A stretch of 29,502 nucleotides of DNA from Lysobacterales bacterium (GTDB lineage Bacteria > Pseudomonadota > Gammaproteobacteria > Xanthomonadales > SZUA-38): NCBI GenBank assembly GCA_041633655.1, contig JBFJNB010000001.1:1-29502 (forward strand), written 5' to 3'. Shown one piece after another: positions 342-20,928 of the stretch (the stretch's first letter is position 1; the number at the start of each line of letters is the position of its first letter). The notes under the pieces were generated by a model, which was given only the letters and a program-made list of their open reading frames with translations, did no database searches and had not been told where the DNA came from. The position numbers were made by a program, and so were the translations under genes.

Positions 342-974
342 ATGGAGCATCAGTTCTGGCTCGACAAGTGGCGCGCCAATCAGCTCGGTTTTCACCGCGA
401 CAGCGTCCATCCGTTCCTGACCGAGCACTGGTCGGCGCTGGGCCTGGCGCCGGGTTCCCGTGCGCTGGTGCCTTTGTGCGGCAAGGCGCTCGACCTGCAC
501 TGGCTGGCCGAGGCCGGCCACCGGGTGCTCGGGATCGAGCTGAGCGAACTCGCGGTCGCGGCGTTTTTCGCCGAAGCCGGCCTCCGGCCAACCATCGACC
601 AGGCCGGCCCGTTCCGGCGCTATCGGGCCGGTCCGATCGAGATCCTGGCCGGCGATTTTTTCGATTTGACGGTTGCGCTGGCCGGCGAGGTCGCGGCGAT
701 CTTCGACCGCGCCGCGCTGGTTGCGCTGCCCGAGCCTCAGCGGCGCGCTTACGTGGCGAAAATCCGTTCCCTGACCGCGCCCGGGACCGCGGTCCTGCTC
801 GTGACCCTCGAATATCCCGGCGGCGCAATCAATCCACCCCCTTTCAGCCTCGACGCGGCCAGCGTGACCGGGCTGTACCGGGATTGGACCTCGATCGAAT
901 GGCTCGGCGAGCGCGCGGATCAGGTCAAGGGAGTCGCGTGCCGCGAGCACGCCTACCGGCTGCGCGCCGGTTGA
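342..974 (+). CDS. tpm: Thiopurine S-methyltransferase (SAM-dependent; bacterial TPMT family)
   Basis: MEHQFWLDKWRANQLGFH start, RALVPLCGKALDL SAM-binding motif, GIELSELAV, GDFFDL, FDRAALVALP and PPFS are TPMT hallmarks. ATG 342 chosen over the ORF-track start 315, which lies inside the terminator. Confidence 0.92.
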   Translation: MEHQFWLDKWRANQLGFHRDSVHPFLTEHWSALGLAPGSRALVPLCGKALDLHWLAEAGHRVLGIELSELAVAAFFAEAGLRPTIDQAGPFRRYRAGPIEILAGDFFDLTVALAGEVAAIFDRAALVALPEPQRRAYVAKIRSLTAPGTAVLLVTLEYPGGAINPPPFSLDAASVTGLYRDWTSIEWLGERADQVKGVACREHAYRLRAG

Positions 975-998
975 CCCTCGCGCCGCGCCGCCCCTTCC

Positions 999-1065
999 CC
1001 GAAAAAAATGGCGAATCCACCGGTTCGCCGCGCCAGATTTTTCACCCCGCCCGAAAATAACGGCG
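999..1065. promoter_or_regulatory. Putative upstream activator sequence (three 15-bp motif copies) for sigma54 promoter 1
   Basis: CCGAAAAAAATGGCG (999-1013, +), GTGAAAAATCTGGCG (1031-1045, -), CCGAAAATAACGGCG (1051-1065, +). The same motif triad recurs before the other two sigma54 promoters. Confidence 0.7.
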
Positions 1066-1099
1066 TCCGTCTCGACCAGACGGCCGTTGATCCTCCGAA

Positions 1100-1112
1100 A
1101 AACAACGACTTA
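1100..1112 (+). promoter_or_regulatory. Possible IHF site between UAS and sigma54 promoter 1
   Basis: AAACAACGACTTA versus consensus WATCAANNNNTTR (1 mismatch), at the position typical for IHF in sigma54 promoters. Confidence 0.35.
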
Positions 1113-1118
1113 GTTTGT

Positions 1119-1134
1119 TGGCACGTGGATTGCA
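1119..1134 (+). promoter_or_regulatory. sigma54 (RpoN) -24/-12 promoter 1
   Basis: TGGCACG-TGGA-TTGCA matches TGGCACG-N4-TTGCW exactly, with GG-N10-GC spacing, 36 bp before ATG 1171. Confidence 0.85.
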
Positions 1135-1170
1135 GCAGCGCCCGGGGTACCCAGCCCAAAAGGGAAGCCG

Positions 1171-3351
1171 ATGGCATTCGAAGAACCAGTGGTGGCCCCG
1201 GCGCATTCGCAACCGGCAACAGACGCCCCGGTGCCGATGCCCAAGGCGCGCCTGATGGTGGTCGAGGACGAGGCGCTGGTGGCGCGCGACATTCAGGGGC
1301 GCCTGCGGGCGATGGGGTATCAGGTGGTGATGGTGTGCACCGGGCCGGACGAGGCGGTCGTCGCGGCACAGGAGCTGGAACCGGATCTGATCCTGATGGA
1401 CATCAACCTGAACGCCAAACGCGACGGCGTCGAGGCGGCCGCCGAGATCCGTCGGCGCAAGGACATCCCGATCATCTTCTGCACCGCGTACTCCAACGAC
1501 GAGGTGCTGCAGCGGGCCAAGATCACCGCGCCCTACGGCTACACCCTGAAGCCGTTCGACAACCGGGAACTGGAAATCAACATCGAGATTGCGCTGTTCA
1601 AGCACCGGATCGAGTTGAAGCGCCGGCGTGACGCGGCGCGCCTGGCCGCGGCGATGAACAGCATCGAAGACGCGGTCATCGCCTGTGATCCCAACGGTGA
1701 GGTGTTCCTGTTCAATCCGCAGGCTCAGGCGATCCTCCGGATTTCCGAAGCCTACGCCGTGGGCAGCCGGATCGACGACCTGCTGCACCTGAGAGACCCC
1801 GACGGCGGCCGCGAGCGAATCCGGATCATCGACGGCGTGATCGGCGAGGGCCGCGAGTACCACAACGCCCGCCAGCGCCTGATCAACGCGCGCGGCGAAG
1901 AAGTCCCGGTGGAGGTCAGCGCCACCCATATCGATTCCGACGACGGCAGCCTGGCCGGCGTCGTGATCGCGTTTCGCGACATCGCCCAGCAGCTCGCCTA
2001 TGAGGAGCAGATCGCCCGCAACGCGTTCGTCGAGCCGCTCACCGGCCTGCCCAACCGACGGGTGTTCATGGATCGGCTGACGATGGCCCTGCGCGTGGCC
2101 AACCTGAGGCCGGACAGCCAGTGCGCGGTGCTGTTCATCGATCTGGATCGGTTCCGGCTGATCAACGACGGCCTCGGTCACGAAAACGGCGATGAGGTAT
2201 TGAAGCGCACGGCCGGGCGGATCCAGCGCGCGATCCGTGACGTCGACACGCTGACCCGGCTGTCGGCCGACACCTTCGTCTGTCTGCTCGATCCGATCGA
2301 AAGTGCCCAGCAGGCGCTCGACATCGCCTCTCTGATCCAGGCCGCGGTGGCGCGCGACATCAAGGTGCGGGAGCGCGAGATCAAGCTGACCGCGACGGTG
2401 GGCATCGCGCTCAGCAACGCGATGCGCTATCAGGACCCGGCCGAGATGCTGCGCGACGCCGACACGGTAATGCACCAGGCCAAGCAGCGGGGTCCGGGCT
2501 CGCAGCTCGTGTTCGACAGCGGCATGCACGAGACCGCGGTCAAGTTCCTGGAATGGGAAAGCGGCCTGCAGCGGGCGGTCGAGCGGGGGGAACTAGCGGT
2601 CTACTACCAGCCGATCGTCGAGTCCGGGACCAATCGCATCGTGGCGCTGGAAGCGCTGTTGCGCTGGCACAGCGACCGGCTGGGGACGATCGCGCCGGAG
2701 GAGTTCATTCCGGTGGCCGAGAGCAACGGCCTGATCGTCCCGATCGGCGAATTCGTCACCGCCGAGGTCTGCCGCCAGATGAAGGCCTGGCGGGAAGCCG
2801 AACTGCCCGAAATCGAGGTCGCGATCAACCTGTCCGCGGGCCAGTTCATCGATGCCAACCTGATGCGCCGTATCAGCCGCGTGCTGAGCGAGCACGAGCT
2901 GAGGCCCAGCCGGCTGCATTTCGAGATTACCGAGAGCGCGGCGATGGCAGACGTCGAAACCAGCGTCAAGATCCTGCGCGAGTTCAAGGCGCTGGGCGTG
3001 CGCATCGCGCTGGACGATTTTGGAACCGGCTACTCCTCGCTGACCTATCTCAAGCAGTTGCCGATCCACATGCTGAAGATCGACCGCTCCTTCGTCACCG
3101 ACATCGTGGGCGATGCCGACGACCAGACCATCGCCAAGGCGATCATCGCGATGGGACACGAATTACGCCTGAAGGTGCTGGCCGAGGGGGTCGAGAGCGC
3201 GGAGCAGGCCGCCCTGCTCGAGGACTTCGGCTGTGACCTGCTGCAGGGTTTTCATTTCGGACACCCGGTGCCAGCCGAGGCGATCACGCCGATGCTGCGC
3301 TCGCAGGAGTCCAGCCGCGCGCGCGCCCACGGTCTGCGCATCGCGTCATGA
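1171..3351 (+). CDS. REC-PAS-GGDEF(degenerate)-EAL response regulator; probable c-di-GMP phosphodiesterase
   Basis: REC: LMVVEDE...DLILMDINL...FCTA...KP. PAS ends in IAFRDI. GGDEF fold (EPLTGLPNRR, LFIDLDRFRLIND) with signature SADTF. EAL domain retains EALLRW, INLS, EITE, DDFGTGYSS, LKIDRSF, AEGVE and QG. Confidence 0.92.
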   Translation: MAFEEPVVAPAHSQPATDAPVPMPKARLMVVEDEALVARDIQGRLRAMGYQVVMVCTGPDEAVVAAQELEPDLILMDINLNAKRDGVEAAAEIRRRKDIPIIFCTAYSNDEVLQRAKITAPYGYTLKPFDNRELEINIEIALFKHRIELKRRRDAARLAAAMNSIEDAVIACDPNGEVFLFNPQAQAILRISEAYAVGSRIDDLLHLRDPDGGRERIRIIDGVIGEGREYHNARQRLINARGEEVPVEVSATHIDSDDGSLAGVVIAFRDIAQQLAYEEQIARNAFVEPLTGLPNRRVFMDRLTMALRVANLRPDSQCAVLFIDLDRFRLINDGLGHENGDEVLKRTAGRIQRAIRDVDTLTRLSADTFVCLLDPIESAQQALDIASLIQAAVARDIKVREREIKLTATVGIALSNAMRYQDPAEMLRDADTVMHQAKQRGPGSQLVFDSGMHETAVKFLEWESGLQRAVERGELAVYYQPIVESGTNRIVALEALLRWHSDRLGTIAPEEFIPVAESNGLIVPIGEFVTAEVCRQMKAWREAELPEIEVAINLSAGQFIDANLMRRISRVLSEHELRPSRLHFEITESAAMADVETSVKILREFKALGVRIALDDFGTGYSSLTYLKQLPIHMLKIDRSFVTDIVGDADDQTIAKAIIAMGHELRLKVLAEGVESAEQAALLEDFGCDLLQGFHFGHPVPAEAITPMLRSQESSRARAHGLRIAS

Positions 3352-3653
3352 CGAGCGTGAGCGCAACGATGCGACTGGCCGATCTGGTGGACATCGACCC
3401 GTATCTGCACATGCCGCTGAACCTGCAGGTCAAGACCGCGCTGGCCCGCCTGCTCGACCGCGGCGAATTGAACGGTCAGCTGCCTTCGCCGGGGCAACTG
3501 GCGCGCGAGCTGCGCGTGTTCTCGGGTTCCATTCGGCGGGCCTACGACGAACTGGTCGCCGACGGCCGGCTCTGCACCGAGGGGTTCGACTACCGGGTCG
3601 CCGCCGCGGAATCGCCGCGCGGCGCATCGGAGCTGGAGACGGAATTGCGGTAG
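3348..3653 (+). CDS. Small GntR-family winged-HTH protein without an effector domain
   Basis: IDPYLHMPLNLQVKTALARLLDRGELNGQLPSPGQLARELRVFSGSIRRAYDELVADG matches the GntR/YtrA-type N-terminal wHTH pattern. ATGA overlap with the upstream stop suggests translational coupling. Confidence 0.75.
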   Translation: MTSVSATMRLADLVDIDPYLHMPLNLQVKTALARLLDRGELNGQLPSPGQLARELRVFSGSIRRAYDELVADGRLCTEGFDYRVAAAESPRGASELETELR

Positions 3654-3802
3654 GCGGTGGGCCGATCAGCGCTTTGCCGAGGCGGGCGACCCCACGGGAG
3701 CCCAAATCCGGCGTTCCATCGTCAACCGGGCAGAGCACCGAGCGCTCGCAAAAAAACCGGGCACTCTCGCTTTTACCCACCGCCTGCCGCATCCAATCGC
3801 GG

Positions 3803-3861
3803 CTGAAAAAACTGGCGCCTCGTTGCCGCCATTTTTTTCGATCGGGCCGAAAATTTTGCCG
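3803..3861. promoter_or_regulatory. Putative UAS (three 15-bp motif copies) for sigma54 promoter 2
   Basis: CTGAAAAAACTGGCG (3803-3817, +), TCGAAAAAAATGGCG (3827-3841, -), and the weaker CCGAAAATTTTGCCG (3847-3861, +). Confidence 0.7.
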
Positions 3862-3912
3862 TCGACCCGGCAAAAAGGACCGGAAACGCGCCCGGCAGAG
3901 CGATTTTCGTGT

Positions 3913-3928
3913 TGGCACGGTTGTTGCT
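3913..3928 (+). promoter_or_regulatory. sigma54 -24/-12 promoter 2
   Basis: TGGCACG-GTTG-TTGCT is an exact consensus match, 54 bp before ATG 3983. Confidence 0.85.
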
Positions 3929-3982
3929 GCTTCTAACGGGAAGCGAGAGGGAGTGCATCGAGATCAGACGCACGAAAGGGGT

Positions 3983-6175
3983 ATGAACCGTTTTCAGACC
4001 AACGTTGAACCCCCGGCTCGCCGCGCGGCGCGGTGGCTGCTGGTCGTGGCAGCCGCGCTGCTGATAGGCCCGTCGCCCGTGGATCGGGTGAGCGTGCCGG
4101 TCGCGGGCGCAGCGCAGGCCCGCGGCGCGATCCTCCAGGGTGCCGACGTCGAGCGGCTGGTGGCGATTGCGACCGAGCACGGCTGGGAGGTCACCCACCG
4201 CCTCGAGCTGATCGACGCGATTGCGGTTCGCGCCGCGCCGCGGCAGGTGCGCGCGGTCACCGGCGCGCCGGAGGTCATCCGGGTATGGCCCAACCGCACG
4301 CTGCGCGTCGCCGGTGCCGCCGCCAAGACCATGCACGAGTACATGAAGACCGAGCCGTTTCCGACTTTCTTCGGCAACGCGGTCTATCTGGGGTTGCGCA
4401 ATTCGGGTCAGGCCGGAATCGAGATCGATACGATCGAGCTGACCTGGCCGAGCGCGAACGGCGCATTGGTCGCGGTCCTCCGCGACGACCGCGAAGAGGT
4501 AGGCGCGGCCGACCTGGTCGCGACCCTGTCGCCGGACGGTCAGTCCTACGCGCTCGACCTGGCGACCGCGCCGTATCCCCGGTTGCGCCAGAGAATCAAC
4601 GGCGGCGGTGACGCCGTACTGGGATTCCGGTTCGAGCACGAGCCGGTCACCGGGATGGACGCCTACCGTCTCGCGTTCCGATTCGCCGACGGCAGCGCGC
4701 TGACCTTCACCCGCGGCGAGGGCGTGCTGCTGCAAGGGCGCCGCCGGGACACGTTCTTCCCGACCGTGGTGCGCGCCGACCAACTGCATCGCGAGGCCGT
4801 GACCGGCGCCGGCGTGAACATCGCATTCATCGATACCGGCATCTACGAGGTCGACGGCCTGGCCCAGGACACGACCGGGGAGTCGCGCATCCTGGCCGGT
4901 TACAACGCGATCACCGGCACCCTGGTCGAGCTGGACGATTCCGGGACCTACGTTTCCGATCTTCTGTTCGGCACCGGGTTCGAGTCCGACCTGGACGGGC
5001 CGGAAACCGTGTCCGACCTGGATTCGGTCCAGGACGGTTATGGCCACGGCTCCCACGTGACCTCGGCCGCGGTTCTGTCCGAGGCGAGCAAGGACTTCAC
5101 CACCGGTGCGTTCAGCGGCAGCTACAGCGGGATCGCGCCCGACGCCGGGGTCGTCAGCGTCAAGGCGCTCAGCGACAGCGGTCAAGGCAGCTACGCCGAC
5201 GTAATCCGCGGGATCGGCTTCGTCGTGACCAACATGGACCGCTACGCGATTCGCGTGCTGAACCTGTCGATCAGCGCGCCGGTGCACTCGCACTATTGGG
5301 ACGACCCGCTCAATCAGGCGGTGATGCGGGCTTGGGCGGCCGGGATCGTCGTGGTCGCCTCGGCGGGCAACACCGGCCCGGATCCGATGACCATCGGCGT
5401 GCCGGGCAACGTCCCCTACGTGATCACCGTCGGCGCGATGAGCGACAACTTCTCGCCCACCGACGTCAGCGACGATTTCCTGAACGATTTCTCCGCCACC
5501 GGCCCGACCTACGAGGGTTTCGTCAAGCCCGAGGTCACCGCGCCTGGCGGGCATATCCAGGGCCTGATGCCGAAGCGCTCGCACCTGGCCACGACCTACC
5601 CGCAGTTTCACGACGCCAACGTCTGGTTCATGATGTCCGGCACCTCGCAGGCCGCGGCGATCGTCAGCGGCGTCGCGGCGCTGGTGCTGCAGCAGCACCC
5701 CGGCCTCACCCCCGATCAGGTGAAATGCCGGCTGATGAGCAGCGCCCGGCCGGCGGTGGACGGCGACGATGGGCTGGCGCTGAGCATCTTCCAGCAAGGC
5801 GCCGGCCTGGTCGACGCATACGCCGCGGTCAACTCCGATGCCGACGGCTGCGCCAACCAGGGGCTGGACGTGCACGCCGATCTGGCGGGCGCCGCCCATT
5901 ATGGTGGGCGCGCCAACCGGGACGCGGACGGGAACTACTACATCATGGGGCTGGACGGCTACTTGTGGGCCGATGGGTATTTGTGGGCCGACGGGTATCT
6001 GTGGGCCGACGGGTATCTGTGGGCCGACGGGTATCTGTGGGCCGATGGTTATCTGTGGGCCGACGGTTACCTGTGGGCCGACGGCTATGTTTGGAATGAC
6101 GGTGCGGTGCAGCCCGACGGCTACTTGTGGGCCGACGCGGCGATCGGGGTCAACACCTGGGTACCGAACCAATAA
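3983..6175 (+). CDS. Exported S8 subtilisin-like serine protease 1 (signal peptide, I9-like prodomain, inserted domain, catalytic domain, Trp hexapeptide tail)
   Basis: Catalytic motifs IAFIDTG (Asp), GYGHGSHV (His), SAGN (oxyanion Asn), MSGTSQAAAIVSG (Ser). N-terminal hydrophobic stretch WLLVVAAALLIG; prodomain HRLELIDAIAV...VIRVWPNR. ATG 3983 has GAAAGGGG upstream and follows the sigma54 promoter. The ORF-track extension from 3233 overlaps other genes. Confidence 0.92.
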   Translation: MNRFQTNVEPPARRAARWLLVVAAALLIGPSPVDRVSVPVAGAAQARGAILQGADVERLVAIATEHGWEVTHRLELIDAIAVRAAPRQVRAVTGAPEVIRVWPNRTLRVAGAAAKTMHEYMKTEPFPTFFGNAVYLGLRNSGQAGIEIDTIELTWPSANGALVAVLRDDREEVGAADLVATLSPDGQSYALDLATAPYPRLRQRINGGGDAVLGFRFEHEPVTGMDAYRLAFRFADGSALTFTRGEGVLLQGRRRDTFFPTVVRADQLHREAVTGAGVNIAFIDTGIYEVDGLAQDTTGESRILAGYNAITGTLVELDDSGTYVSDLLFGTGFESDLDGPETVSDLDSVQDGYGHGSHVTSAAVLSEASKDFTTGAFSGSYSGIAPDAGVVSVKALSDSGQGSYADVIRGIGFVVTNMDRYAIRVLNLSISAPVHSHYWDDPLNQAVMRAWAAGIVVVASAGNTGPDPMTIGVPGNVPYVITVGAMSDNFSPTDVSDDFLNDFSATGPTYEGFVKPEVTAPGGHIQGLMPKRSHLATTYPQFHDANVWFMMSGTSQAAAIVSGVAALVLQQHPGLTPDQVKCRLMSSARPAVDGDDGLALSIFQQGAGLVDAYAAVNSDADGCANQGLDVHADLAGAAHYGGRANRDADGNYYIMGLDGYLWADGYLWADGYLWADGYLWADGYLWADGYLWADGYLWADGYVWNDGAVQPDGYLWADAAIGVNTWVPNQ
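5954..6133 (+). repeat. 18-bp coding tandem repeat: (DGYLWA)x7, DGYVWN, DGAVQP, DGYLWA
   Basis: Read directly from the DNA. Units vary at synonymous positions (gac/gat, ggc/ggg/ggt, tac/tat, ttg/ctg); units 3-5 are identical. Confidence 0.95.
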
Positions 6176-6186
6176 ACGAGTGGGCA

Positions 6187-8361
6187 ATGAGAACGCGAAC
6201 TGAAACCAGCACACTCTCCCTTTTTGCTGCGGCGCTCGGGGTCCTGATCGCGGCCGGGGTTACCCGGACCGTGCCCGCGCCGTCGGTCGATGTCGGACCG
6301 GCGGAGCGCTACATCGTGCGCGGCGCAGACCTGGAGCAGGCGCGCGCCGCGGTGCGGGGGGTCCAGGGCGAGATCATTCGAGAGCTCGGGATCATCGACG
6401 CGGTCGGCGCGCGGCTGACCCCGCGCCAGAAATCGGCGCTCGAGGCGCTGGATTCGGTGCGCGGCGTCTACCCCGACCGCGCGGTCGAGCTCAACGCCAA
6501 ACCGGGCGGCGGCAACGGTAATTCCTGCGACGAGCAGGTCATGCTCGATCGGTTCGAGTCCGACGCCTACAACAACAACGATGGCACCGCCTCCTTCCAG
6601 GGGAACTGGTACGAATGGATCGGCGACGGCGGGGCGCGCAATGGCGCGATCCACGTCAACGGCGGCATGCTGCACTTCGCCGGCCCGGCCCCGGACGGCC
6701 GGTTCGCGCTGGAGCGCTATTTTCGGATCGATTCTCTGGCCTATGTGAACCTGACCTTCGATGTTGAGGCCAGCGCCGCCACCGGGGCCGACGACGTGCT
6801 GATGCTGTACTCGGTCGACGAGATGGGGGGCGCCGACGAACTGCTGAGCATTCGCGCCGACGAGGTCAAGAACCTGACGCATCTGTCGGTGGACCTGACG
6901 ATCGAGTACTGGAACATCTGGGCGGTCGGATTCGAGGTCGTGTCCGGGCTGCAGACGAGCGACCAGCGGTTTTCGATCGACAATTTCAAGATGGCCATCA
7001 GCATCGAGCATCCCGGTGACCAGGACAACGAGCTGATCGGCGCCGAACGCGTCCGCGAGCAGCTCGGGCTGGACGGGCGCCAAATCGGAATCGCCTTCGT
7101 CGACACCGGCTACACCCATTTCATGGGGGACAACGACGAGGTCGGCGGCAACGGCGGCGTCACGACTTATTCGGTCCTCGCCGGCTCACCCGCCGACGCC
7201 CACGGCCACGGCACCCACGTGATCAGCGCCGCGACCCATAACATGAGAGGCCCGAGCCTGTGTTCGAAGGCGCCGAAGCTCGGCGTGGCACCCGCCGCCG
7301 ACGTCGTCTCGGTGCGCGCGTTCGATGCCCAGGGGCAGGGCACCTATCTGGACGTGATCGCGGCGATCGACTGGGTGGTCCAGATCAAGGACCTGCACAA
7401 CATTCGGGTCCTCAATCTCTCGTTCGGCGCCACCCCTCAATCCAACTACTGGAACGATCCGGTCAACCTGGCGGCGATGGCCGCGTGGCAGGCCGGCATC
7501 GTGGTCGTGACCTCGGCCGGCAACTCCGGTCCCGATCCGATGAGCATCACGGTACCCGGCAACGTGCCCTATCTGATCACCGTGGGCGCACTGACCGACG
7601 ATTACACCGGCTCGATCGCCGGCGACGACCGGGTCGCGAGCTTCTCCGCCGCCGGCCCGACCCATGAGGCATTCGTCAAGCCCGACCTGATCGCCCCCGG
7701 CGGCCACATCCTGGGGACGATGCCCTACGGCAGCACGCTGCGGATGCTGTATCCGGAATACGTCGATCCCGACGACGACCACTACTTCACGATGTCCGGC
7801 ACCTCCCAGGCCGCGGCCGTGGTCAGCGGTGCGATTGCGCTGATGCTGGATGACGATCCCGGCCTGAGCCCGGACGACGTCAAGTGCCGGCTGCTGAGCA
7901 GCGCGATGCAGGCCACGCTCGGCGACGGCACGCCGGCCTACAGCCCGTTCCGTCAGGGCGCCGGCCTGATCAACGTGGACCGAGCGATTGCGAGCACCGA
8001 GACCGGCTGCGCCAATCAGGGGCTCAATATCGCGCTCGACCTCGCCGGACTGGAGCACTACGTGGGTCCGGTCCGGGCCGACGCTCAGGATCAGTTCTAC
8101 CTGGTCCGGGCCGACGGCACCATCCTGAGCGATGATTCATTCTGGAACGAAACCTCGGTCTGGAACGAAACCTCGGTCTGGAACGAAACCTCGGTCTGGA
8201 ACGAGACCTCGGTGTGGAACGAGACTTCGGTCTGGAACGAGACCTCGGTCTGGAACGAGACCTCGATTTGGAACGAAACCTCGATTTGGAACGAGAGCAA
8301 CTTCCTGAACAACGGATTGACCGCGTCGATGTCCGTTTCGGTCTGGATCGAACCGGAATAA
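6187..8361 (+). CDS. Exported S8 subtilisin-like serine protease 2 with inserted domain and Trp hexapeptide tail
   Basis: IAFVDTG, AHGHGTHV, TSAGN and MSGTSQAAAVVSG motifs; hydrophobic N-terminus LSLFAAALGVLIAAG; I9-like YIVRG...ELGIIDAVGARL. Starts 11 bp after the protease 1 stop, so probably co-transcribed. Confidence 0.92.
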   Translation: MRTRTETSTLSLFAAALGVLIAAGVTRTVPAPSVDVGPAERYIVRGADLEQARAAVRGVQGEIIRELGIIDAVGARLTPRQKSALEALDSVRGVYPDRAVELNAKPGGGNGNSCDEQVMLDRFESDAYNNNDGTASFQGNWYEWIGDGGARNGAIHVNGGMLHFAGPAPDGRFALERYFRIDSLAYVNLTFDVEASAATGADDVLMLYSVDEMGGADELLSIRADEVKNLTHLSVDLTIEYWNIWAVGFEVVSGLQTSDQRFSIDNFKMAISIEHPGDQDNELIGAERVREQLGLDGRQIGIAFVDTGYTHFMGDNDEVGGNGGVTTYSVLAGSPADAHGHGTHVISAATHNMRGPSLCSKAPKLGVAPAADVVSVRAFDAQGQGTYLDVIAAIDWVVQIKDLHNIRVLNLSFGATPQSNYWNDPVNLAAMAAWQAGIVVVTSAGNSGPDPMSITVPGNVPYLITVGALTDDYTGSIAGDDRVASFSAAGPTHEAFVKPDLIAPGGHILGTMPYGSTLRMLYPEYVDPDDDHYFTMSGTSQAAAVVSGAIALMLDDDPGLSPDDVKCRLLSSAMQATLGDGTPAYSPFRQGAGLINVDRAIASTETGCANQGLNIALDLAGLEHYVGPVRADAQDQFYLVRADGTILSDDSFWNETSVWNETSVWNETSVWNETSVWNETSVWNETSVWNETSIWNETSIWNESNFLNNGLTASMSVSVWIEPE
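8143..8304 (+). repeat. 18-bp coding tandem repeat: (WNETSV)x6, (WNETSI)x2, WNESNF
   Basis: Counted from the DNA: tggaacga(a/g)ac(c/t)tcg(gtc/gtg/att); the first three units are identical. Confidence 0.95.
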
Positions 8362-8382
8362 GCCCGGTGCCGACGCCCTGAC

Positions 8383-8441
8383 CCGAAAAATCTGGCGCCG
8401 GAGCCGGCGCCAGATTTTCCTATCCGCGCCGTTTTTTTCGG
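8383..8441. promoter_or_regulatory. Putative UAS (three 15-bp motif copies) for sigma54 promoter 3; the first two form a perfect 14-bp inverted repeat that may also terminate the upstream operon
   Basis: CCGAAAAATCTGGCG (8383-8397, +), TAGGAAAATCTGGCG (8408-8422, -), CCGAAAAAAACGGCG (8427-8441, -). Inverted repeat AAAATCTGGCGCCG-gagc-CGGCGCCAGATTTT at 8387-8418. Confidence 0.7.
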
Positions 8442-8495
8442 CCGTCTCGCGGCCGTAAGTTCTTTTCTGCGCAGAAACAAAGAGATACCAAAAGT

Positions 8496-8511
8496 TGGCA
8501 TAGGGCTTGCT
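8496..8511 (+). promoter_or_regulatory. sigma54 -24/-12 promoter 3
   Basis: TGGCATA-GGGC-TTGCT with correct GG-N10-GC spacing, 39 bp before ATG 8551. Confidence 0.8.
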
Positions 8512-8550: not shown

Positions 8551-10770
8551 ATGTCATCGATAAAAAGAACCCACCAGCGAGTTCTCGCCGCCGCGGCCGC
8601 GGTTGCGGCGGTCGGCCTCGTCGTGTTGGGTTCGGCGGTGATGCCGGTGGCGCACGAAGCCGGTGACCGCTCGTCGACCGCTCGCTACATCGTCGCCGGC
8701 GCCTCGAGCACCGCGGTGAGCGACATTCTCACCGCCCGCGGGGTAGAGATTCTGGCCAGGCTCGAAATCATCGACGCCGTCGGCGCCGAGTTGACCGCGA
8801 CCCAGGTCGAAGCGCTGACCCGGGTCCCGGGCCTGCGGCTGCACCGAGATCGTGCGCTCAAGGTCCAGTCCGCGGGTGGTACGTCCTGCGGCGAGACCGT
8901 GATGCTCGATCGCTTCGAGAGCGACCGGTTCGACAACAACGATGGCAACGTGCCCTGGGACGGGCCGTGGAAGGACACCGACGAGACAGACGGTGCCAAC
9001 CACGGCTTCTCGCGGGTCGAGGGCGGCAAGGTCCGGCTGTGGGGCAGCAACGAGGACGACGAGGACACCGGCGTGATTCGCAAGGCGGTGCTGCAGGCCG
9101 GACAGTACGCCTACCTGTCGTTGGATCTGGAGACCAACGGCGTGATGCCGAGGCGCGCCGAATTCGAGCTGGAGATCATCGTCGACGGGATCGATTACAA
9201 GCTCGAATTGATGGACCTCGAACCCGACATGAAATTCACGCGCAGCTACAACCTGGCCGCCTTTGCCGGCAAGAAGATCCGGGTCGAGCTCGAGCTGGAA
9301 GACGCCGGCGACGAGGTCAGGAATGGTCAGCGGCCGCTGCTCAGCATCGACAACGTCAAGATCGTCCAGTCGCCGGACAATCCGGGAGCCTACGCGGCCG
9401 ACCTGGTCGAGGCCACGGTGCTGCACGATGCTGGAATCGACGGCTCCGGCGTGACCATCGCCTTCGTCGACTCCGGCGTCGACCCCAACAGCGAATCGAT
9501 GTTCAAAGGCAACGGCCAGTCTCGTCTTAAGGGCCACTACTCGGTCAACGGCAGCGGCTCGAACGACGGCCACGGCCACGGTTCGCACCTGGTCAGCGTG
9601 GCCACCCAGGCGTCGGCCGCTCCCAGCTCCTGCGTCACAGACGGTGGGAGAAAGCTGGGTATCGCCCCGGGCGCGGATGTGGTCGCGGTGCGAGCGTTCG
9701 ACAACCACGGCCACGGAACCTATCTCGGCGTGATCCAGGCGCTCGACCTGGTGCTGTCGATGAAAGACCTCCACGACATCCGCATCGTCAATCTGTCCTT
9801 CGGCGCGACCCCGGAGTCCACTTACTGGGACGACCCGGTCAACCAGGCGGTGATGAAACTGTGGGCCGAAGGCCTGGTGGTCGTGACCTCGGCTGGCAAC
9901 GAGGGGCCGGACCCGATGTCCATTACCGTGCCCGGCAACGTGCCCTACGTGATCACCGTCGGCGCGATGACCAACAACTACACCACCAGCGACTCCAGCG
10001 ATGACCGGGTCGCCACATTCTCCGGCGCCGGCCCGACCGCGGAGGGCTTCGTCAAGCCGGATCTGGTCGCTCCCGGCGGCCACCTGGCCGGCATCATCGG
10101 CGCCGGCAACACGCTGGCCTATGACCTTGCCGCTTACGCGGACCAGAACGACGGTGACTATTTCCTTGCCTCCGGCACCTCGCAGGCCGCGGCCGTGGTC
10201 AGCGCGGCGGCTGCCTTGCTGCTGCAGTACGACCCGAGCCTGACCAACGATGAGGTCAAGTGTCGCCTGATGGAGGGCGGCAAGCTGGCCACGCTGGCGA
10301 ACGGCGATCTGGCCTACAGCCCGTTTCGTCAGGGCGCCGGCCTGCTGAACCTGTACGCGGCCGTCAACGCGCAGCCCAATGGCTGTCCAAACGACGGGTT
10401 GGACGTTCACGCCGATCTGTATCAGGGGATTCATTTCACCGGACCGGTCCGGGCGGACGCCCAGGGCCACTTCGAGATCGTTCAGGCCGACGGCAGCCTC
10501 TGGAGCCAGGGCTCGTTCTGGAACGAGGGTTCATTCTGGAACGAGAACACGGTTTGGAACCAGGGTTCGCTCTGGAGCGAAACGTCGTTTTGGAACGAGA
10601 CCTCGATCTGGAACGAAACCTCGATCTGGAACGAGACCTCGATCTGGAACGAAACGTCAATCTGGAACGAGACCTCGATCTGGAACGAGACCTCGATCTG
10701 GAACGAGGGGGGGCTGGGGAACACGGCTTTGGTGCCGATGGTGCTGGCCGTGGCCAGGGATCAGCAGTAG
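8551..10770 (+). CDS. Exported S8 subtilisin-like serine protease 3 with inserted domain and Trp hexapeptide tail
   Basis: IAFVDSG, GHGHGSHL, TSAGN and ASGTSQAAAVVS motifs; long hydrophobic N-terminus VLAAAAAVAAVGLVVLGSAV; I9-like YIVAG...RLEIIDAVGAEL. ATG 8551 is preceded by GGGGCG. Confidence 0.92.
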   Translation: MSSIKRTHQRVLAAAAAVAAVGLVVLGSAVMPVAHEAGDRSSTARYIVAGASSTAVSDILTARGVEILARLEIIDAVGAELTATQVEALTRVPGLRLHRDRALKVQSAGGTSCGETVMLDRFESDRFDNNDGNVPWDGPWKDTDETDGANHGFSRVEGGKVRLWGSNEDDEDTGVIRKAVLQAGQYAYLSLDLETNGVMPRRAEFELEIIVDGIDYKLELMDLEPDMKFTRSYNLAAFAGKKIRVELELEDAGDEVRNGQRPLLSIDNVKIVQSPDNPGAYAADLVEATVLHDAGIDGSGVTIAFVDSGVDPNSESMFKGNGQSRLKGHYSVNGSGSNDGHGHGSHLVSVATQASAAPSSCVTDGGRKLGIAPGADVVAVRAFDNHGHGTYLGVIQALDLVLSMKDLHDIRIVNLSFGATPESTYWDDPVNQAVMKLWAEGLVVVTSAGNEGPDPMSITVPGNVPYVITVGAMTNNYTTSDSSDDRVATFSGAGPTAEGFVKPDLVAPGGHLAGIIGAGNTLAYDLAAYADQNDGDYFLASGTSQAAAVVSAAAALLLQYDPSLTNDEVKCRLMEGGKLATLANGDLAYSPFRQGAGLLNLYAAVNAQPNGCPNDGLDVHADLYQGIHFTGPVRADAQGHFEIVQADGSLWSQGSFWNEGSFWNENTVWNQGSLWSETSFWNETSIWNETSIWNETSIWNETSIWNETSIWNETSIWNEGGLGNTALVPMVLAVARDQQ
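10501..10716 (+). repeat. 18-bp coding tandem repeat, 12 Trp units: WSQGSF WNEGSF WNENTV WNQGSL WSETSF (WNETSI)x6 WNEGGL
   Basis: Counted from the DNA; units degenerate towards the 5' end and are homogeneous in the 3' half. Confidence 0.95.
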
Positions 10771-10787
10771 CACTGCGGCCGCGCGGC

Positions 10788-13910
<3,123 letters not shown>

Positions 13911-13947
13911 CGACCGTGCACTCATTCGGCCGCGCGCCTGCCGGATT

Positions 13948-13976
13948 TTGCCGGTGCTTGGACAACGGCATAAAAT
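13948..13976 (+). promoter_or_regulatory. Putative sigma70-type promoter for the sensor gene pair
   Basis: TTGCCG-N17-TAAAAT in the short divergent intergenic region; no sigma54 consensus was found here. Confidence 0.45.
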
Positions 13977-13994
13977 GGTACGCCTTCCACGGGC

Positions 13995-16900
13995 ATGAAA
14001 CGCGGCAAGCCAATGATCGACCGAATCCGGATTCTATCCTTTTCCGGCCCGCTCGTGCTCCTTTGGTGGATCGGGTCGGCGGTCGCACTGGAGCAGCGTC
14101 ACAACATTCGCTTCGACCGCCTCGGTCTGGAGGAGGGCCTGTCGCAGGAGACCGTCTACGACATCCTGCAGGATCGCGACGGGATCCTCTGGCTGGCGAC
14201 CCAGGAGGGACTGAACCGGTACGACGGTTATACGATCCGAACCTATCTCCACGAGCCCGATGAGCCCGGCACGCTGTCGCACGACTGGGTCTGGACCGTG
14301 CTCGAGGATCGCTCCGGGACCTTGTGGGTCGGCACCGACGGGGGCGGACTGAACCGGTTCGACCGGCGCACCGGTTCCTTCATCCACTATCGGCACGCGG
14401 AGCACGATCGGGCGACGCTTTCCAACGACGTGGTTCGGGTGGTGTTCGAAGACCGCGACGACGGCCTTTGGGTGGGCACCGACGGTGGCCTCAATCGGTT
14501 CGATCCCGAAACCGGCACGTTTCGCCGCTTCCGCCACGACCCGGCGGACCCGTTCAGCATCTCGGACGACCGCGTGCGCGCGGTGGTCCAGGACCGGCGC
14601 GGACTGCTGTGGGTTGCCACCGACGGTGGCGGTTTGAACCAGATGGATCTGGCTCGCGACAACTTCCATCAGTTTCGCCACGACCCGAACAACCCCGGCT
14701 CGCTGAGCAGCGATCGGGTGCGCAGCCTGTACGAAGCGCGCGACGGGATGTTGTGGATCGGCACCTACGACGGCGGCCTGAACCGCTACAACCCGCGCAC
14801 CGGCACGTTCAAGCACTATCAGGGACAGGGAACCGGCCTGGAGAGCGACTTCGTGCGCGAGATGCTCCAGGATCACCGCGGGGTGCTGTGGGTCGCCACC
14901 GACAACGGGCTGCACGAGTACCGACCCGAGAGCGACACCTTCGTGCGTTATGGCAGCGACGTGGCCAATCCCAAGAGCCTGGCCGACAACCGCACCATTT
15001 CGCTGTTTCAGGATGCCGGCGAGGTGCTTTGGGTCGGCACCTACGCCGGACTCAACAAGTGGAACTATCAGACCATCGCGTTCCGCCTGTACCGGGGGGC
15101 TCAGGCGAACGGCCTGCGCAGCGACGCCATTCTGGCCTTTGCCGAGACCAACGGCGGCGACTGGTGGATCGGCACCTACGAGGGGCTGTACCGCTACCGC
15201 AGCGAGTCCGGGATGTTCGAGCTGCAACCGCTGGAGATCGCGCCCGGCCAGCCCGGCGACGAGCGCATCACGGCGCTGGCGACCGACCCCGGCGGTGAGC
15301 TTTGGATCGGAACCCGTGCCGGCGGCTTGTTTCGGTTGGACCCGCGGACCGGGCAAACCACTCATTATCCGGCGACCAGCGCCCCGGGCGGGCTCTCCGT
15401 GGGCGGCGTCACCGCGCTCAGCGTCGATCAGGAAGAGTCCCTGTGGGTGGCGACGTTCGGGGGCGGGCTGTACCGTCACGACCGCGCGCTGGATCGGTTC
15501 GAGGCCTACCGGCACGATCCCGAAGATCCCGCCTCGCTCCCGAGCAATCGGGTGGTCTCGATCCTGATCACCGACAACGGCGAGATCTGGGTGGGCACCT
15601 TCGGCGCCGGCGCCGCGCGCCGGTCGGCCGAGGCCGGCGGATTCCTGACCTTCACCAACGAGCCCGGCGACAAGACCAGTCTCTCCAACAATACCGTGTG
15701 GGCGATCCACGAGGACCTGCGCGGAAACCTGTGGTTCGGCACCCAGGGCGGTGGCCTCAACCTGCTGCCGGCGGATCAGCGCACCCTGGTCGATCCGGCT
15801 TTCCAGCGCTTTGGCCGCCGCCAGGGCCTGCGCAGCCAGGTCGTGTACGGCGTGTTGTCCGACGACCAGGGCAACATCTGGGCCAGCTCCAATCGTGGGC
15901 TCGTGCGCCTGGTGCCCTCGAGTGGGCGGGTCACCCACTACGATACGCATCACGGACTGCAGGCCTACGAATTCAATTCGGGGGCCTACCTGCGTACCCG
16001 CCGCGGGGAGATGCTGTTCGGCGGCTCCAAGGGCTTCAACGCCTTCTTTCCGTCCGAGGTGCGACTGCGCGAATACAAACCGCCGGTGGTCCTGACCAAC
16101 GTGTTCAAGGTCAACGAACCACTGGTGCGTCCCGGCGGCTTGCAGCGGCTCGAGCACCTGGATCTGGCGGCCGAAGATTATCTGGTGACGTTCGAATTCT
16201 CGGGGCTGGATTACAGCTCTCCCGGCGACAACGCATACCGTTACAAGCTCGAGGGCTACGACACCGACTGGATCGAATCGGGATCGGTGCGACGCGCCTC
16301 GTACACCAACCTGCCCAGCGGCCAATACCGCTTCATGGTGCTCGCGGCCGGACCCGGGGGGGTGTGGAGCGATCCCAGCATCAACCTGGACGTCATCGTG
16401 CACCCGCCCTGGTACTTGAGTCCGGTCGCCTATCTCGCCTACGCCCTCGGGTTGATCGCGGCGCTGCTGGCCGGGTATGCGCTGCACCGCCGACGCCTCG
16501 CGCGCGAGGCCAGTTTGAGGGTCGAGCTCGAGCGCGAGATCTCCGATCGCACCCAGGAGCTGGTCGAGCGCGGGCTGGAACTCGAGGAGCGCAACCGCGA
16601 ACTGCGCGCGCTGAACACGCGCCTGGAAGAGACTTCGATCACGGATCCGCTGACCGGGCTGAACAATCGACGCTTCGTTCGGGAGTTCATGCAGAAAACC
16701 GCCGGCTCACTGGATCGGCGACTGGAGAAACTGCCGCTGGCCACGGTTCAGAAGCATGGCCCGAGGCTGTTCTGCATCGTGCTGGACGTCGACGGGTTCA
16801 AGCCCCAGATCGAGCGCTTCGGTCCGGCCTTCGGGGATCGGGTGCTGGAGCGGATCGGGCGTGATCTGCGCGGCTTGTGTCGCGAGGCGGACCTGGTGGC

Positions 16901-17342
16901 CCGGTGGGGCGAGGACCAGTTCCTGCTGGTTGGCGAGACCGCCGACGTCGAGATCGTAATGGCCATCGCCGAGCGCCTGGTCAGCGTGATCTCCGAGATC
17001 GACCACCGCACCGCCGACAACGAGCTGGTGCGGATCACGATCACCGCGGGACTGACCCTTTATCCGTTTTCGATCGTGCAGCCGCACCTGTTCACCTGGG
17101 AGCAGGTGACCGCGATCTCCCAACAGGCGACCGTGCTGGGCAAGCAGAAGGGCGGGAATCGCTGCGTCGGGATCGGGGTCGGTTCACTGGGCCTGTCGCG
17201 CGGCGATTTCAAGAAAATCCTCAGCGACCCCGACGGGATGGAGCGGCGCGGCGCGATCAAGATTCATTTCATCGGTCCGGGCGCCAGGGCAACGGCGGTA
17301 GAGGACCCGGACGAAACCGAGGGTGGGCCGCATGCCGCGTAG
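13995..17342 (+). CDS. Membrane sensor: periplasmic beta-propeller (Reg_prop) repeats + Y_Y_Y + TM + degenerate GGDEF (alternative start 14013)
   Basis: GLSQETVYDILQDRDGILWLATQEGLNRYDG and many LWVGTxGGGL repeats; Y_Y_Y (YRYKLEGYDTDW...ASYTNLPSGQYRFMV); PPW followed by a TM helix; coiled coil; TDPLTGLNNRR, VLDVDGFK and RWGEDQF. Confidence 0.9.
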   Translation: MKRGKPMIDRIRILSFSGPLVLLWWIGSAVALEQRHNIRFDRLGLEEGLSQETVYDILQDRDGILWLATQEGLNRYDGYTIRTYLHEPDEPGTLSHDWVWTVLEDRSGTLWVGTDGGGLNRFDRRTGSFIHYRHAEHDRATLSNDVVRVVFEDRDDGLWVGTDGGLNRFDPETGTFRRFRHDPADPFSISDDRVRAVVQDRRGLLWVATDGGGLNQMDLARDNFHQFRHDPNNPGSLSSDRVRSLYEARDGMLWIGTYDGGLNRYNPRTGTFKHYQGQGTGLESDFVREMLQDHRGVLWVATDNGLHEYRPESDTFVRYGSDVANPKSLADNRTISLFQDAGEVLWVGTYAGLNKWNYQTIAFRLYRGAQANGLRSDAILAFAETNGGDWWIGTYEGLYRYRSESGMFELQPLEIAPGQPGDERITALATDPGGELWIGTRAGGLFRLDPRTGQTTHYPATSAPGGLSVGGVTALSVDQEESLWVATFGGGLYRHDRALDRFEAYRHDPEDPASLPSNRVVSILITDNGEIWVGTFGAGAARRSAEAGGFLTFTNEPGDKTSLSNNTVWAIHEDLRGNLWFGTQGGGLNLLPADQRTLVDPAFQRFGRRQGLRSQVVYGVLSDDQGNIWASSNRGLVRLVPSSGRVTHYDTHHGLQAYEFNSGAYLRTRRGEMLFGGSKGFNAFFPSEVRLREYKPPVVLTNVFKVNEPLVRPGGLQRLEHLDLAAEDYLVTFEFSGLDYSSPGDNAYRYKLEGYDTDWIESGSVRRASYTNLPSGQYRFMVLAAGPGGVWSDPSINLDVIVHPPWYLSPVAYLAYALGLIAALLAGYALHRRRLAREASLRVELEREISDRTQELVERGLELEERNRELRALNTRLEETSITDPLTGLNNRRFVREFMQKTAGSLDRRLEKLPLATVQKHGPRLFCIVLDVDGFKPQIERFGPAFGDRVLERIGRDLRGLCREADLVARWGEDQFLLVGETADVEIVMAIAERLVSVISEIDHRTADNELVRITITAGLTLYPFSIVQPHLFTWEQVTAISQQATVLGKQKGGNRCVGIGVGSLGLSRGDFKKILSDPDGMERRGAIKIHFIGPGARATAVEDPDETEGGPHAA

Positions 17343-20300: not shown

Positions 20301-20928
20301 AAAGGAACTGCTGCTCAAGGAGGTGCACCACCGGGTCAAGAACAACATGCAGGTGGTGTCCAGCCTGCTTCACATCCAGACCGAGACCATCGAGGATCCG
20401 GCCGTCATCGCGATGCTCAACGAGAGCCAGAACCGGATCCGCTCGATGGCGCTGATCCACGAGAGCCTGTATCAGTCCGACAACCTGCTGCAGATCGACT
20501 TCGACGATTACCTGAGGCTTCTGACCGGCAAGCTCAACCGGATTTACGAAACCCCGGGCGTGAGCGTGGCGATCGAAATCGAGTCGCGAGACGTTCAGCT
20601 CGACATCGAGCGCGCGGTGCCGTGCGGGCTGATCGTCAACGAGCTGGTTTCCAACTCGCTCAAACACGCGTTCAAGGGGCGCGACGGCAGCGGTCGGATC
20701 GCGGTTCGGGCGGGGCGCCAGGAATCCCATTTCGTGCTCGAGGTCTGCGATGACGGGGTCGGGTTCCCGGAGGGCGTGGATTTCCGGGAGATGGCCTCGA
20801 TGGGGATGGAGATCGTCTGCATCCTGGCCGGCCAGCTCAAGGGCACGATCGAACTGGAGCGCCAGCATGGCACCTGCTTCGTGATTCGCTTTCCGGTCGG
20901 CGACGAGGATCACTCCGAGGCCGCCTGA
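17332..20928 (+). CDS. Sensor histidine kinase: Reg_prop propellers + Y_Y_Y + TM + PAS + coiled coil + HisKA_2 + HATPase_c
   Basis: Same propeller/Y_Y_Y architecture (YRYRLEGLEDNW...ATYTNLAPG); PAS ending ARDATERK; H-box LLKEVHHRVKNNMQ, N-box ELVSNSLKHAF, G1 VCDDGVGFP. Start overlaps the upstream stop by 11 bp. Confidence 0.92.
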   Translation: MPRSLAAWALAALLAAGAAPAKDNLVFSHLTVDQGLSQEFITAVVQDPYGFIWVGTQEGLNRFDGRRFEVFLNEPGNPQSLPHDWVTDLLVAADGRLWVGTRGGGLSVFDYSRSRFEPFGGLEQGFGQLAIRCLHQDQNRIIWAGTDNDGIVQIDRDGTVARLRHDPLDATSLSDDRVRDVVSDPQGRVWVATEGGGLNLWDDQTGKFEAFRHSPQVADTLSSDRLLSLFAAPDGTIWVGTYDAGLSVVNPFRRSVVRLGHSPEDFFSLSSNRVRVVYQDVDGRIWVGTDNGLDLWDPDRRGFHRYRSESGARGSLSDNRITTLMQDRGGVLWVGTYAGLNNWNARVGSIQHYRREAEAPSSLSSDVITSFAEDRNGRLWVGTWGGGLNRIDLASGQIVHYRAGEGSLADDRVMSLLADRGGRLWVGTLSSGLHRFDADREAFTRYRHDPEDPASISANAITNIFEDSRGWIWVATFGGGLNRLQPDGVFTRYMAGPADEGRLSSNRVIDIAENDDGKLWLATDGGGINIFDPIQERFERVLPDPERPDSLASAAVVSVLITKTDIWLGTRDSGLDRLAQADYRAGRLKFRHYTRQTGLPSNAIQGVLEDDTGMIWLSSNKGITAIAPENDRIRNFREPHGLQGAEFNSGAHYKAQDGTLYFGGNNGFNRFNPRNLFWSSNAYKPPVVLTGLTIFGEAVTFDRPLAEVRSIALNYSDYVVGFEFAALDYTNPEANRYRYRLEGLEDNWNDSGNISRATYTNLAPGRNYMFRVQAANSDGVWSDQELAIAITVRPPPWMTWWAYLVYALLALGVALVVSGLLIRRTRAQTEKRANERLRMYLHCLDEAADAVAILEPDGEIAYHNRALAEMLEHQAGGALRPSQLFASEDSARQALAEVAEHGRWQKTMPRPGDRVDAYLDLTLTQVGMDGAGSAIIAIARDATERKQTEDELKRYRDRLEMLVHKRTQELEQEIGEHKRTENQLRISLDEKELLLKEVHHRVKNNMQVVSSLLHIQTETIEDPAVIAMLNESQNRIRSMALIHESLYQSDNLLQIDFDDYLRLLTGKLNRIYETPGVSVAIEIESRDVQLDIERAVPCGLIVNELVSNSLKHAFKGRDGSGRIAVRAGRQESHFVLEVCDDGVGFPEGVDFREMASMGMEIVCILAGQLKGTIELERQHGTCFVIRFPVGDEDHSEAA

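Follow-up and report, generated by a model that had tools for sequence, protein, structure and literature searches.

An asymmetric 15-bp word in three-site arrays at sigma-54 promoters, the probable enhancer of an activator with a doubled helix-turn-helix domain

We analyzed a stretch of 29,502 nucleotides from a Lysobacterales bacterium (contig JBFJNB010000001.1 of assembly GCA_041633655.1, hereafter the window), in which nine copies of a 15-bp word form three triads upstream of three sigma-54 promoters. Judging from sequence comparison, these nine 15-mers very likely serve as the upstream activating sequences (UASs) of the adjacent sigma-54 activator, a bacterial enhancer-binding protein (bEBP, P0001) encoded at 10788-13925 on the minus strand. 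In several phyla, this word is found together with the C-terminal domain of the activator, with promoters of the same kind, and with the same target genes. The window covers contig C1 of the assembly (G000) in full; the assembly comprises 2.92 Mb in 515 contigs and is 69% complete with a G+C content of 68%. The same-genus and same-family relatives compared with it are metagenome-assembled genomes (MAGs) labeled Lysobacterales. RNA data for the window sequence were looked for among public runs, and only marine-metagenome DNA runs matched.

Nine sites at three promoters and their specificity in the genome

The consensus of the nine 15-mers is CCGAAAAAWNTGGCG, with the core GAAAAWWNYGGCG, and the flanking sequences are not conserved. 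The word is asymmetric: one half is an A-run, the other is TGGCG, and no dyad symmetry was found within the 15-mer. Triad 1 consists of CCGAAAAAAATGGCG (999-1013, plus strand, 26.2 bits with the window matrix described below), GTGAAAAATCTGGCG (1031-1045, minus strand), and CCGAAAATAACGGCG (1051-1065, plus strand), and is followed by promoter P1, TGGCACGTGGATTGCA (1119-1134, plus strand; GG at 1120-1121 and GC at 1132-1133). Triad 2 consists of CTGAAAAAACTGGCG (3803-3817, plus strand), TCGAAAAAAATGGCG (3827-3841, minus strand), and CCGAAAATTTTGCCG (3847-3861, plus strand), and precedes P2, TGGCACGGTTGTTGCT (3913-3928, plus strand). In triad 3, CCGAAAAATCTGGCG (8383-8397, plus strand) is followed by two minus-strand copies, TAGGAAAATCTGGCG (8408-8422) and CCGAAAAAAACGGCG (8427-8441), and by P3, TGGCATAGGGCTTGCT (8496-8511, plus strand). 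The last copies of triads 1, 2, and 3 end 55, 53, and 56 bp before the -24 GG, and the first copies start 121, 111, and 114 bp before its first G, so that the sites span 53-121 bp upstream of the GG. All coordinates and strands that an earlier sequence-only reading of this DNA had given for the nine copies were exact when the sequence was re-read, as were these distances and the identical 5-bp gap that it had noted between the second and third copies at P1 and P2. A partial tenth copy (CCGAAAAACAACGAC, 1095-1109), located between triad 1 and P1, retains only the CG/A-run half and scored below the threshold of both matrices used in this study.

The three promoter boxes are canonical, with GG and GC 10 bp apart within TGGCAC-N5-TTGCW, and the start codons at 1171, 3983, and 8551 follow 37-55 bp downstream of them. 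P1 precedes a gene of the cyclic di-GMP (c-di-GMP) phosphodiesterase type, and P2 and P3 precede three genes for S8 proteases of the secreted type (S8a and S8b at P2, S8c at P3). Sigma-54 itself is encoded in the genome by rpoN on contig C254 (PF04552 match, E 3e-69).

We built a log-odds position weight matrix (PWM) from the nine sites and scanned the whole 2.92-Mb assembly, approximately 5.8 million positions. Fifteen positions in the assembly scored at least as high as the weakest true site, and nine of these were the sites themselves. The remaining high-scoring single 15-mers were isolated, lay away from sigma-54 boxes, and were apparently mostly within open reading frames (ORFs). Site pairs within 60-80 bp of each other were found at the three window triads only; outside the window (2.89 Mb), the real PWM gave no cluster and the reversed PWM gave three. 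In leave-one-triad-out scans, the PWM was made from two triads and the third was ranked among all non-training positions of the genome. The left-out sites, in order, ranked 1, 6, and 7 for triad 1, 2, 1, and 64 for triad 2, and 1, 132, and 2 for triad 3, that is, within ranks 1-7 for seven of the nine.

The sequence-only reading had noticed no such triad in the other intergenic regions and had proposed a genome-wide scan for the motif plus a -24/-12 box. With the window PWM, clusters of at least two sites were indeed confined to the three places in the window, and a triad was found at three of the 17 strict TGGCAY-N5-TTGC boxes of the genome, all three in the window. The word is not a generic A-tract or terminator word common throughout the genome, an outcome that the same reading had named as speaking against it. 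Its further claim that the motif defines the regulon of the activator held within the 69%-complete MAG only, and was to be amended even there, as a family-level PWM adds a weaker fourth triad on contig C258.

Recurrence of the word in near and distant relatives

In orthologous loci, both linked and unlinked, the word was found again before sigma-54 promoters of S8 protease and EAL genes. In G001, a genome of the same genus whose bEBP is 77% identical, the S8c orthologue is preceded by sites in changed order and then by the box TGGCATAAGATTTGCA, whose GG lies 56 bp from the end of the proximal 15-mer. In G007 (bEBP 58% identical, genome 94% complete), arrays were found at four sigma-54 boxes, two of which are on unlinked contigs. 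One array is located beside a kinase gene (54 bp from GG) and another upstream of two linked protease genes (44 bp); those on the unlinked contigs lie downstream of the GGDEF-EAL orthologue and before a protease gene (C28, 52 bp) and before another protease gene (C124, 66 bp). An extra strong copy, CAGGAAAAACTGGCG, was observed downstream of the sigma-54 box on C28, in the leader of the protease gene (L088, approximately 220-245). A loose IUPAC pattern with one mismatch allowed was uninformative in G001 and G007 (253 matches versus 137 for the backwards control in G007), and an exact pattern match on contig C45 of G001 proved unrelated to the window.

Within the same family, S8 homologues were present in all seven genomes with a tandem helix-turn-helix (HTH) bEBP and in two of the eight without it. 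A site cluster accompanies a sigma-54 box at the unlinked S8 loci of G010, G012, G013, and G014, genomes that carry a paralogous activator; in G005 and G008, which have no such bEBP, both the box and the sites are missing from the S8 loci.

One genome per species was scanned for the tandem-HTH domain of the activator, which yielded 35 loci in Lysobacterales, Pseudomonadales (Azotimanducaceae and Kangiellaceae), Colwellia, Acidobacteriota (Polarisedimenticolaceae and Thermoanaerobaculia), and Myxococcota. The activator in most of these loci adjoins a Reg_prop/Y_Y_Y/GGDEF gene, at least one S8 protease gene, and an EAL or GGDEF-EAL gene, and it is the sole DNA-binding protein conserved in this module. 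The word recurs at tandem-HTH bEBP loci of Pseudomonadales, Colwellia, Kangiellaceae, and Acidobacteriota. The window PWM detected nine clusters in eight of the 31 loci outside the family of the window (560 kb), and the reversed PWM detected none.

An unsupervised seed-and-refine motif search was performed on the -170 to -30 regions of 24 sigma-54-like boxes in the distant loci, with no input from the window. It converged on GAAAATTTCGGCG with a total log-likelihood of 317, versus 226-237 in ten shuffles. The independent family matrix obtained in this way recovered all nine window sites at 12.7-19 bits, including the second site of triad 3 (12.7-13.5 bits) and the third site of triad 2, the poorest match at the GGCG end (13.7-16.2 bits). 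Among random 180-bp segments of the genome, 1% contain two or more family-matrix sites. The motif search on related loci that the earlier reading had suggested thus returned the same word from distant sigma-54 upstream regions alone. Its assignment of the sites to the adjacent bEBP is supported, at the level of sequence, in that the motif follows the activator and its target genes in orthologous and distant loci.

The arrays hold two to four sites in relatives and three at each window promoter, where the spacing is approximately 20-22 bp. All copies are in one orientation in five loci (L053, L056, L063, L074, and L079), and same-orientation neighbors are 21.1 ± 1.5 bp apart, equal to two helical turns. 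The distance from the proximal site to the GG is 44-68 bp in the window lineage and 77-144 bp elsewhere; measured from the edge of the 15-mer, the window-lineage distances are 44, 52-56, and 66 bp, with steps of approximately 11 bp. Over 20 promoters, these distances were phased with a best period of 10.5-10.75 bp in a scan of 7-16 bp (R 0.53, Rayleigh p about 0.0025). The "fixed distance" of the earlier reading therefore stands at the window promoters (53-56 bp) and is better described as the lineage-specific case of a face-of-helix constraint, as the distance is 77-144 bp in other lineages.

Sites 1 and 2 of triad 3 form a hairpin with a perfect 14-bp stem (8387-8418, plus strand; -24.7 kcal/mol, z -5.5) that directly follows the S8b gene, 26 bp after its stop codon, and a terminator consensus scan gave weak candidates overlapping the sites at 1010-1029 and 3813-3828. 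The inverted copies might on these grounds be intrinsic terminators of the upstream genes, with a GC-rich stem end and a T-run, whose likeness to each other is generic. We consider this extremely improbable: the first two sites of triads 1 and 2, like their counterparts in G001 and G007, fold no better than shuffles (z -1.7, -1.9, -0.9, -2.0, and +0.7), and no such cluster occurs elsewhere in the genome, although it must hold hundreds of terminators. In addition, many arrays elsewhere consist of three tandem copies in the same orientation, approximately 21 bp apart, so hairpins are impossible there. The terminator as a general explanation was rejected by folding; the hairpin of triad 3 may double as the terminator of the S8a-S8b operon and as an enhancer.

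The A/T-rich centers and the 15-bp size of the words resemble the Fis core, and the promoter spacers are rich in A-tracts. The words could accordingly be architectural elements, either A-tract bends or Fis or IHF sites that aid looping, rather than sites of the activator itself. This is very improbable: neither the invariant GGCG end nor the CG that precedes the A-run is characteristic of Fis or IHF sites, the other 14 strict sigma-54 boxes of the genome lack a triad detectable with the window PWM, and the word follows one activator family across phyla. Moreover, the arrays are located at -80 to -140, where activators bind, and not between activator and promoter. Inspection of the spacers for IHF sites, by eye only, revealed nothing convincing.

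The activator, its DNA-binding domain, and a paralogue

An adjacent bEBP had been postulated from the letters and exists: the minus-strand gene at 10788-13925 encodes 1045 residues with intact Walker A and GAFTGA motifs. The domain order is REC, PAS, degenerate GGDEF, GAF, sigma-54 AAA+, linker, and tandem HTH. The GGDEF domain was matched from profile position 29 on and carries YGGAVFA in place of the GG[DE]EF signature; the AAA+ domain carries GESGTGKE and GAFTGA. An acidic, proline-rich linker of approximately 50 residues is located between the AAA+ lid and the DNA-binding domain. No NCBIfam equivalog scored above its cut-off for this protein. The plus-strand ORF at 10767-13973 (1068 residues), opposite the bEBP gene, has no Pfam match and was rejected as a gene; it is a high-GC shadow of the bEBP gene that could mislead annotation. 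The small winged-HTH protein encoded at 3348-3653 was likewise rejected as the binder, as tblastn found no homologue of it in the other loci searched.

The C-terminal DNA-binding domain (residues 905-1045; 10791-11213, minus strand) contains two Fis-like units of the HTH_8 type. Both HTH segments are conserved in orthologues and paralogues (alignment A1) and in 32 further sequences of other taxa (A2). AlphaFold2 with A2 predicted residues 905-1045 as one compact domain of nine helices, with a predicted local distance difference test (pLDDT) score of 95.1 and a predicted template modeling (pTM) score of 0.88. The first HTH half matched the whole Fis monomer 1etk_A with a Z of 6.6 and a root mean square deviation of 2.0 Å over 65 residues. 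The profile of the second half matched Fis residues 23-94 (E 1.7e-4), with AALMGVxxxTxRxWL aligned against ALMMGINRGTLRKKL; this unit also resembles Tc3 and Myb repeats (Z about 5.6). The Fis-like fold is recognized by a long helix plus a helix-turn-helix, with the recognition helix G-x-x-x-x-T-x-R-K/R, and these features are present. A Foldseek search against the PDB gave local Fis matches only and no whole-domain match to a solved chain. From the alignments and the predicted structure, we conclude that the domain is a tandem duplication of a Fis-like unit.

The tandem-HTH domain is rare, with 313 clusters at E ≤ 1e-10 among 1.84 billion representatives (50% identity clusters), and the family is almost confined to uncultured marine and soil bacteria. 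The domain is always C-terminal, and the full-length proteins are 950-1070 residues long. The second recognition helix begins with SEPT in the window lineage, Colwellia, and Kangiellaceae and mostly has PPT elsewhere (loci L046-L080). Covariation with the DNA was suggestive: T precedes GGCG in 14 of 19 sites at loci with SEPT, and C does so in 28 of 37 sites at the other loci (T in 9 of 37). This provides a weak hint of direct readout.

A paralogous tandem-HTH bEBP is encoded on contig C54 of the same genome (L043, 1280-7610), followed by its own Reg_prop/Y_Y_Y/GGDEF gene. It is 41% identical to P0001, lacks REC-PAS, and has the same double HTH with an almost identical HTH1; its 9.8-kb contig yielded neither a sigma-54 box nor a cluster of sites. 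Similar words, among them CGCCGGTTTTTCC and AAAAAAATGGTG, are present beside its orthologues (L044/L069 and L045/L076), at distances of 89-148 bp from downstream sigma-54 boxes; the paralogue on C54 probably reads a very similar word. The weaker fourth array of G000, detected with the family-level matrix only, is located on contig C258 (L092) at 680-732 and comprises CGGAATATCGGCG on the plus strand and CGCCGGAATTGCG and CGCCGGTATTTTC, both on the minus strand. It lies 93 bp upstream of TGGCACGTTGATTGC and the gene of a MASE1-PAS-HisKA-HATPase-REC hybrid kinase (833-3409), the whole feature spanning 680-841. The sites of this array are of the CGGCG type and resemble the paralogue type, so the array may belong to the C54 protein.

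Given these similarities, the window triads themselves could be bound mainly or also by the C54 paralogue, with cross-regulation between two activators of nearly the same specificity. We regard this as unlikely. A query with the full-length bEBP found no C54-type paralogue in the 94%-complete G007, yet this genome keeps A6-7-TGGCG triads at four promoters, both beside and away from the orthologue of P0001, which favors the adjacent protein as the binder. The window sites have a T before GGCG and a long A-run, whereas the paralogue-type sites are mostly CGGCG. Furthermore, the targets adjoin the orthologue in G000, G001, and G007.

Proposed mode of action, known systems, and gene order

We propose that the tandem Fis-like domain of P0001 would read the word as a single-chain pseudo-dimer. 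One unit would read the GGCG end and the other the CG/A-tract end, across an A/T-rich center with a narrow minor groove, as the Fis dimer spans its 15-bp core. Two fused, non-identical Fis-like units would be expected to require a 15-bp site with an A/T-rich center and two different ends, and the observed word has CG plus an A-run at one end and YGGCG at the other. The site would be asymmetric because the two heads differ, and would work in either orientation because the domain hangs on a linker of approximately 50 residues. With three sites on one face of the DNA, protomers would be locally concentrated and the AAA+ hexamer nucleated. Looping of the 55-bp spacer, rich in A-tracts, would let the hexamer contact promoter-bound E-sigma54 and drive open complex formation. 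The REC, PAS, degenerate-GGDEF, and GAF domains presumably serve as inputs that gate this activity.

A more specific model, based on the predicted structure, is offered only tentatively and is rather doubtful as a whole. One protomer, not a dimer, would occupy each asymmetric 15-bp site in either orientation, and three-site arrays two helical turns apart would template half of an AAA+ ring, which would differ from the dimer-on-palindrome rule of NtrC and NorR. The arrays would then act as a conserved cis code for a module shared across phyla, whose activator, with a degenerate GGDEF domain that presumably senses c-di-GMP, would turn on both secreted S8 proteases and a c-di-GMP phosphodiesterase of its own.

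Several observations weigh against the assignment of the arrays to P0001 or against parts of the proposed mechanism. In G007, a fifth triad (L040 19805-19866, contig C17) is located 53 bp from the bEBP start codon with no recognizable -24/-12 box. It sits in the 226-bp divergent region between the Reg_prop-GGDEF and bEBP genes; the counterpart of this spacer in the window (13926-13994) is only 69 bp long and contains no site. Some arrays may thus have another mode of action, such as autoregulation, or the promoter at this triad may be degenerate. Sequence alone cannot assign the binder, because orthologues of the C54 paralogue adjoin very similar words. The sites at 3847 and 8408 were weak in cross-validation, and the first two sites of triad 3 also make a good hairpin. 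The phasing statistics use phylogenetically non-independent promoters, and the covariation statistics are drawn from few, related, and equally non-independent lineages. Since the genome is 69% complete, the statements on uniqueness and regulon are lower bounds. The pseudo-dimer mode rests on a monomer model without DNA, of which only the halves match solved structures.

Among known systems, NorR at E. coli norVW uses three enhancer sites, all of which are essential and are needed for ATPase activity and oligomer formation; the array helps to build the active higher-order AAA+ oligomer and to keep it stable, and its sites are inverted repeats, GT-N7-AC, read by a dimer (PMC2831303). The window resembles this system in having three activator sites upstream of one sigma-54 promoter and an activator with a GAF domain. 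It differs in that the word is asymmetric and occurs in either orientation, with no GT-N7-AC dyad in CCGAAAAAWNTGGCG, and in that P0001 has two HTHs per chain versus one in NorR. NtrC enhancers such as those of glnAp2 share with the arrays the Fis-type HTH, multiple sites on one face at approximately -80 to -140, and assembly of the hexamer on DNA, the last being proposed for the bEBP. Unlike the window 15-mers, which lack an internal dyad and of which tandem direct repeats also occur, NtrC sites are 17-bp palindromes bound by dimers. Some sites of the present family end in TGGTGCA, which we take to be similar to an NtrC half-site.

The Fis dimer recognizes a 15-bp core with an A/T-rich center that is not contacted and needs a narrow minor groove (PMC4784862). 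Each half of the bEBP domain is Fis-like, and the 15-bp site likewise has an A/T-rich center between ends containing G/C. Unlike this domain, Fis is a homodimer of separate chains that binds a quasi-symmetric, degenerate site with Arg85-G contacts at +/-7 (PMC4784862). In the bEBP, the units differ and are fused, Glu or Pro occupies the position of Arg85, and the site is both asymmetric and specific.

FleQ, FlrA, and VpsR are also activators of the sigma-54 family in c-di-GMP circuits, and the targets and neighbors of the bEBP encode GGDEF/EAL proteins. However, these proteins have a single HTH and use the AAA+ domain to bind c-di-GMP, whereas the bEBP has a fused degenerate GGDEF domain; the FleQ box is presumably unrelated to the window word. 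Tc3 transposase, Myb R2R3, and the paired domain also combine two HTH units in one chain, an arrangement that could allow a composite, asymmetric site to be read, but these are not sigma-54 activators and share no homology with the bEBP beyond the generic three-helix fold.

We found no description of this activator family, its architecture, or the word in the literature. The element would be a bEBP enhancer (UAS), a known kind; judged by sequence, it would differ from every case that we found in that its site is asymmetric and orientation-free, its activator carries two DNA-binding units, and it is associated across phyla with S8 proteases and c-di-GMP enzymes. Most families of sigma-54 activators have no known cognate DNA site. 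A site that can be assigned by sequence to an unstudied bEBP family would serve as a predictor of its regulon, here secreted S8 proteases, c-di-GMP phosphodiesterases, and sensor kinases. Enhancer-binding proteins as a rule bind palindromes as dimers, and this site would be a candidate exception; it would also tie c-di-GMP signaling to sigma-54 control of extracellular proteolysis in several phyla.

The genes of this part of the window are arranged as follows. A TPMT methyltransferase is encoded at 315-974, before triad 1. The P1 operon (1171-3653, plus strand) begins with the gene of a REC-PAS-GGDEF-EAL protein (1171-3351, Pfam), followed by that of the small winged-HTH protein of 101 residues (3348-3653, NCBIfam); the 4-bp overlap of the two genes suggests co-transcription. 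The P2 operon (3983-8361, plus strand) encodes two S8 subtilases, S8a (3983-6175) and S8b (6127-8361), with Pfam Peptidase_S8 matches at E 1e-42 and 1e-44. The P3 gene encodes the third S8 subtilase, S8c (8551-10770, plus strand, Pfam), with orthologues in G001 (69%) and G007 (55%), and is convergent to the bEBP gene. Divergent from the bEBP gene are those of a Reg_prop/Y_Y_Y/GGDEF protein (13995-17342) and, beyond it, of a Reg_prop/Y_Y_Y/PAS/HisKA_2 kinase (17323-20928). The sequence TTGCCG-17-TAAAAT (13948-13976, plus strand), just upstream of the Reg_prop-GGDEF gene, is the sole sigma-70-like match in the first 14.5 kb, and the sensor genes therefore seem to be outside the control of the sigma-54 arrays in G000. 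Toward its 3' end, the S8b gene has direct repeats of 18 bp that are nearly perfect (ggaacgaNacctcgattt, 8250-8300) and give the protein a repetitive tail.

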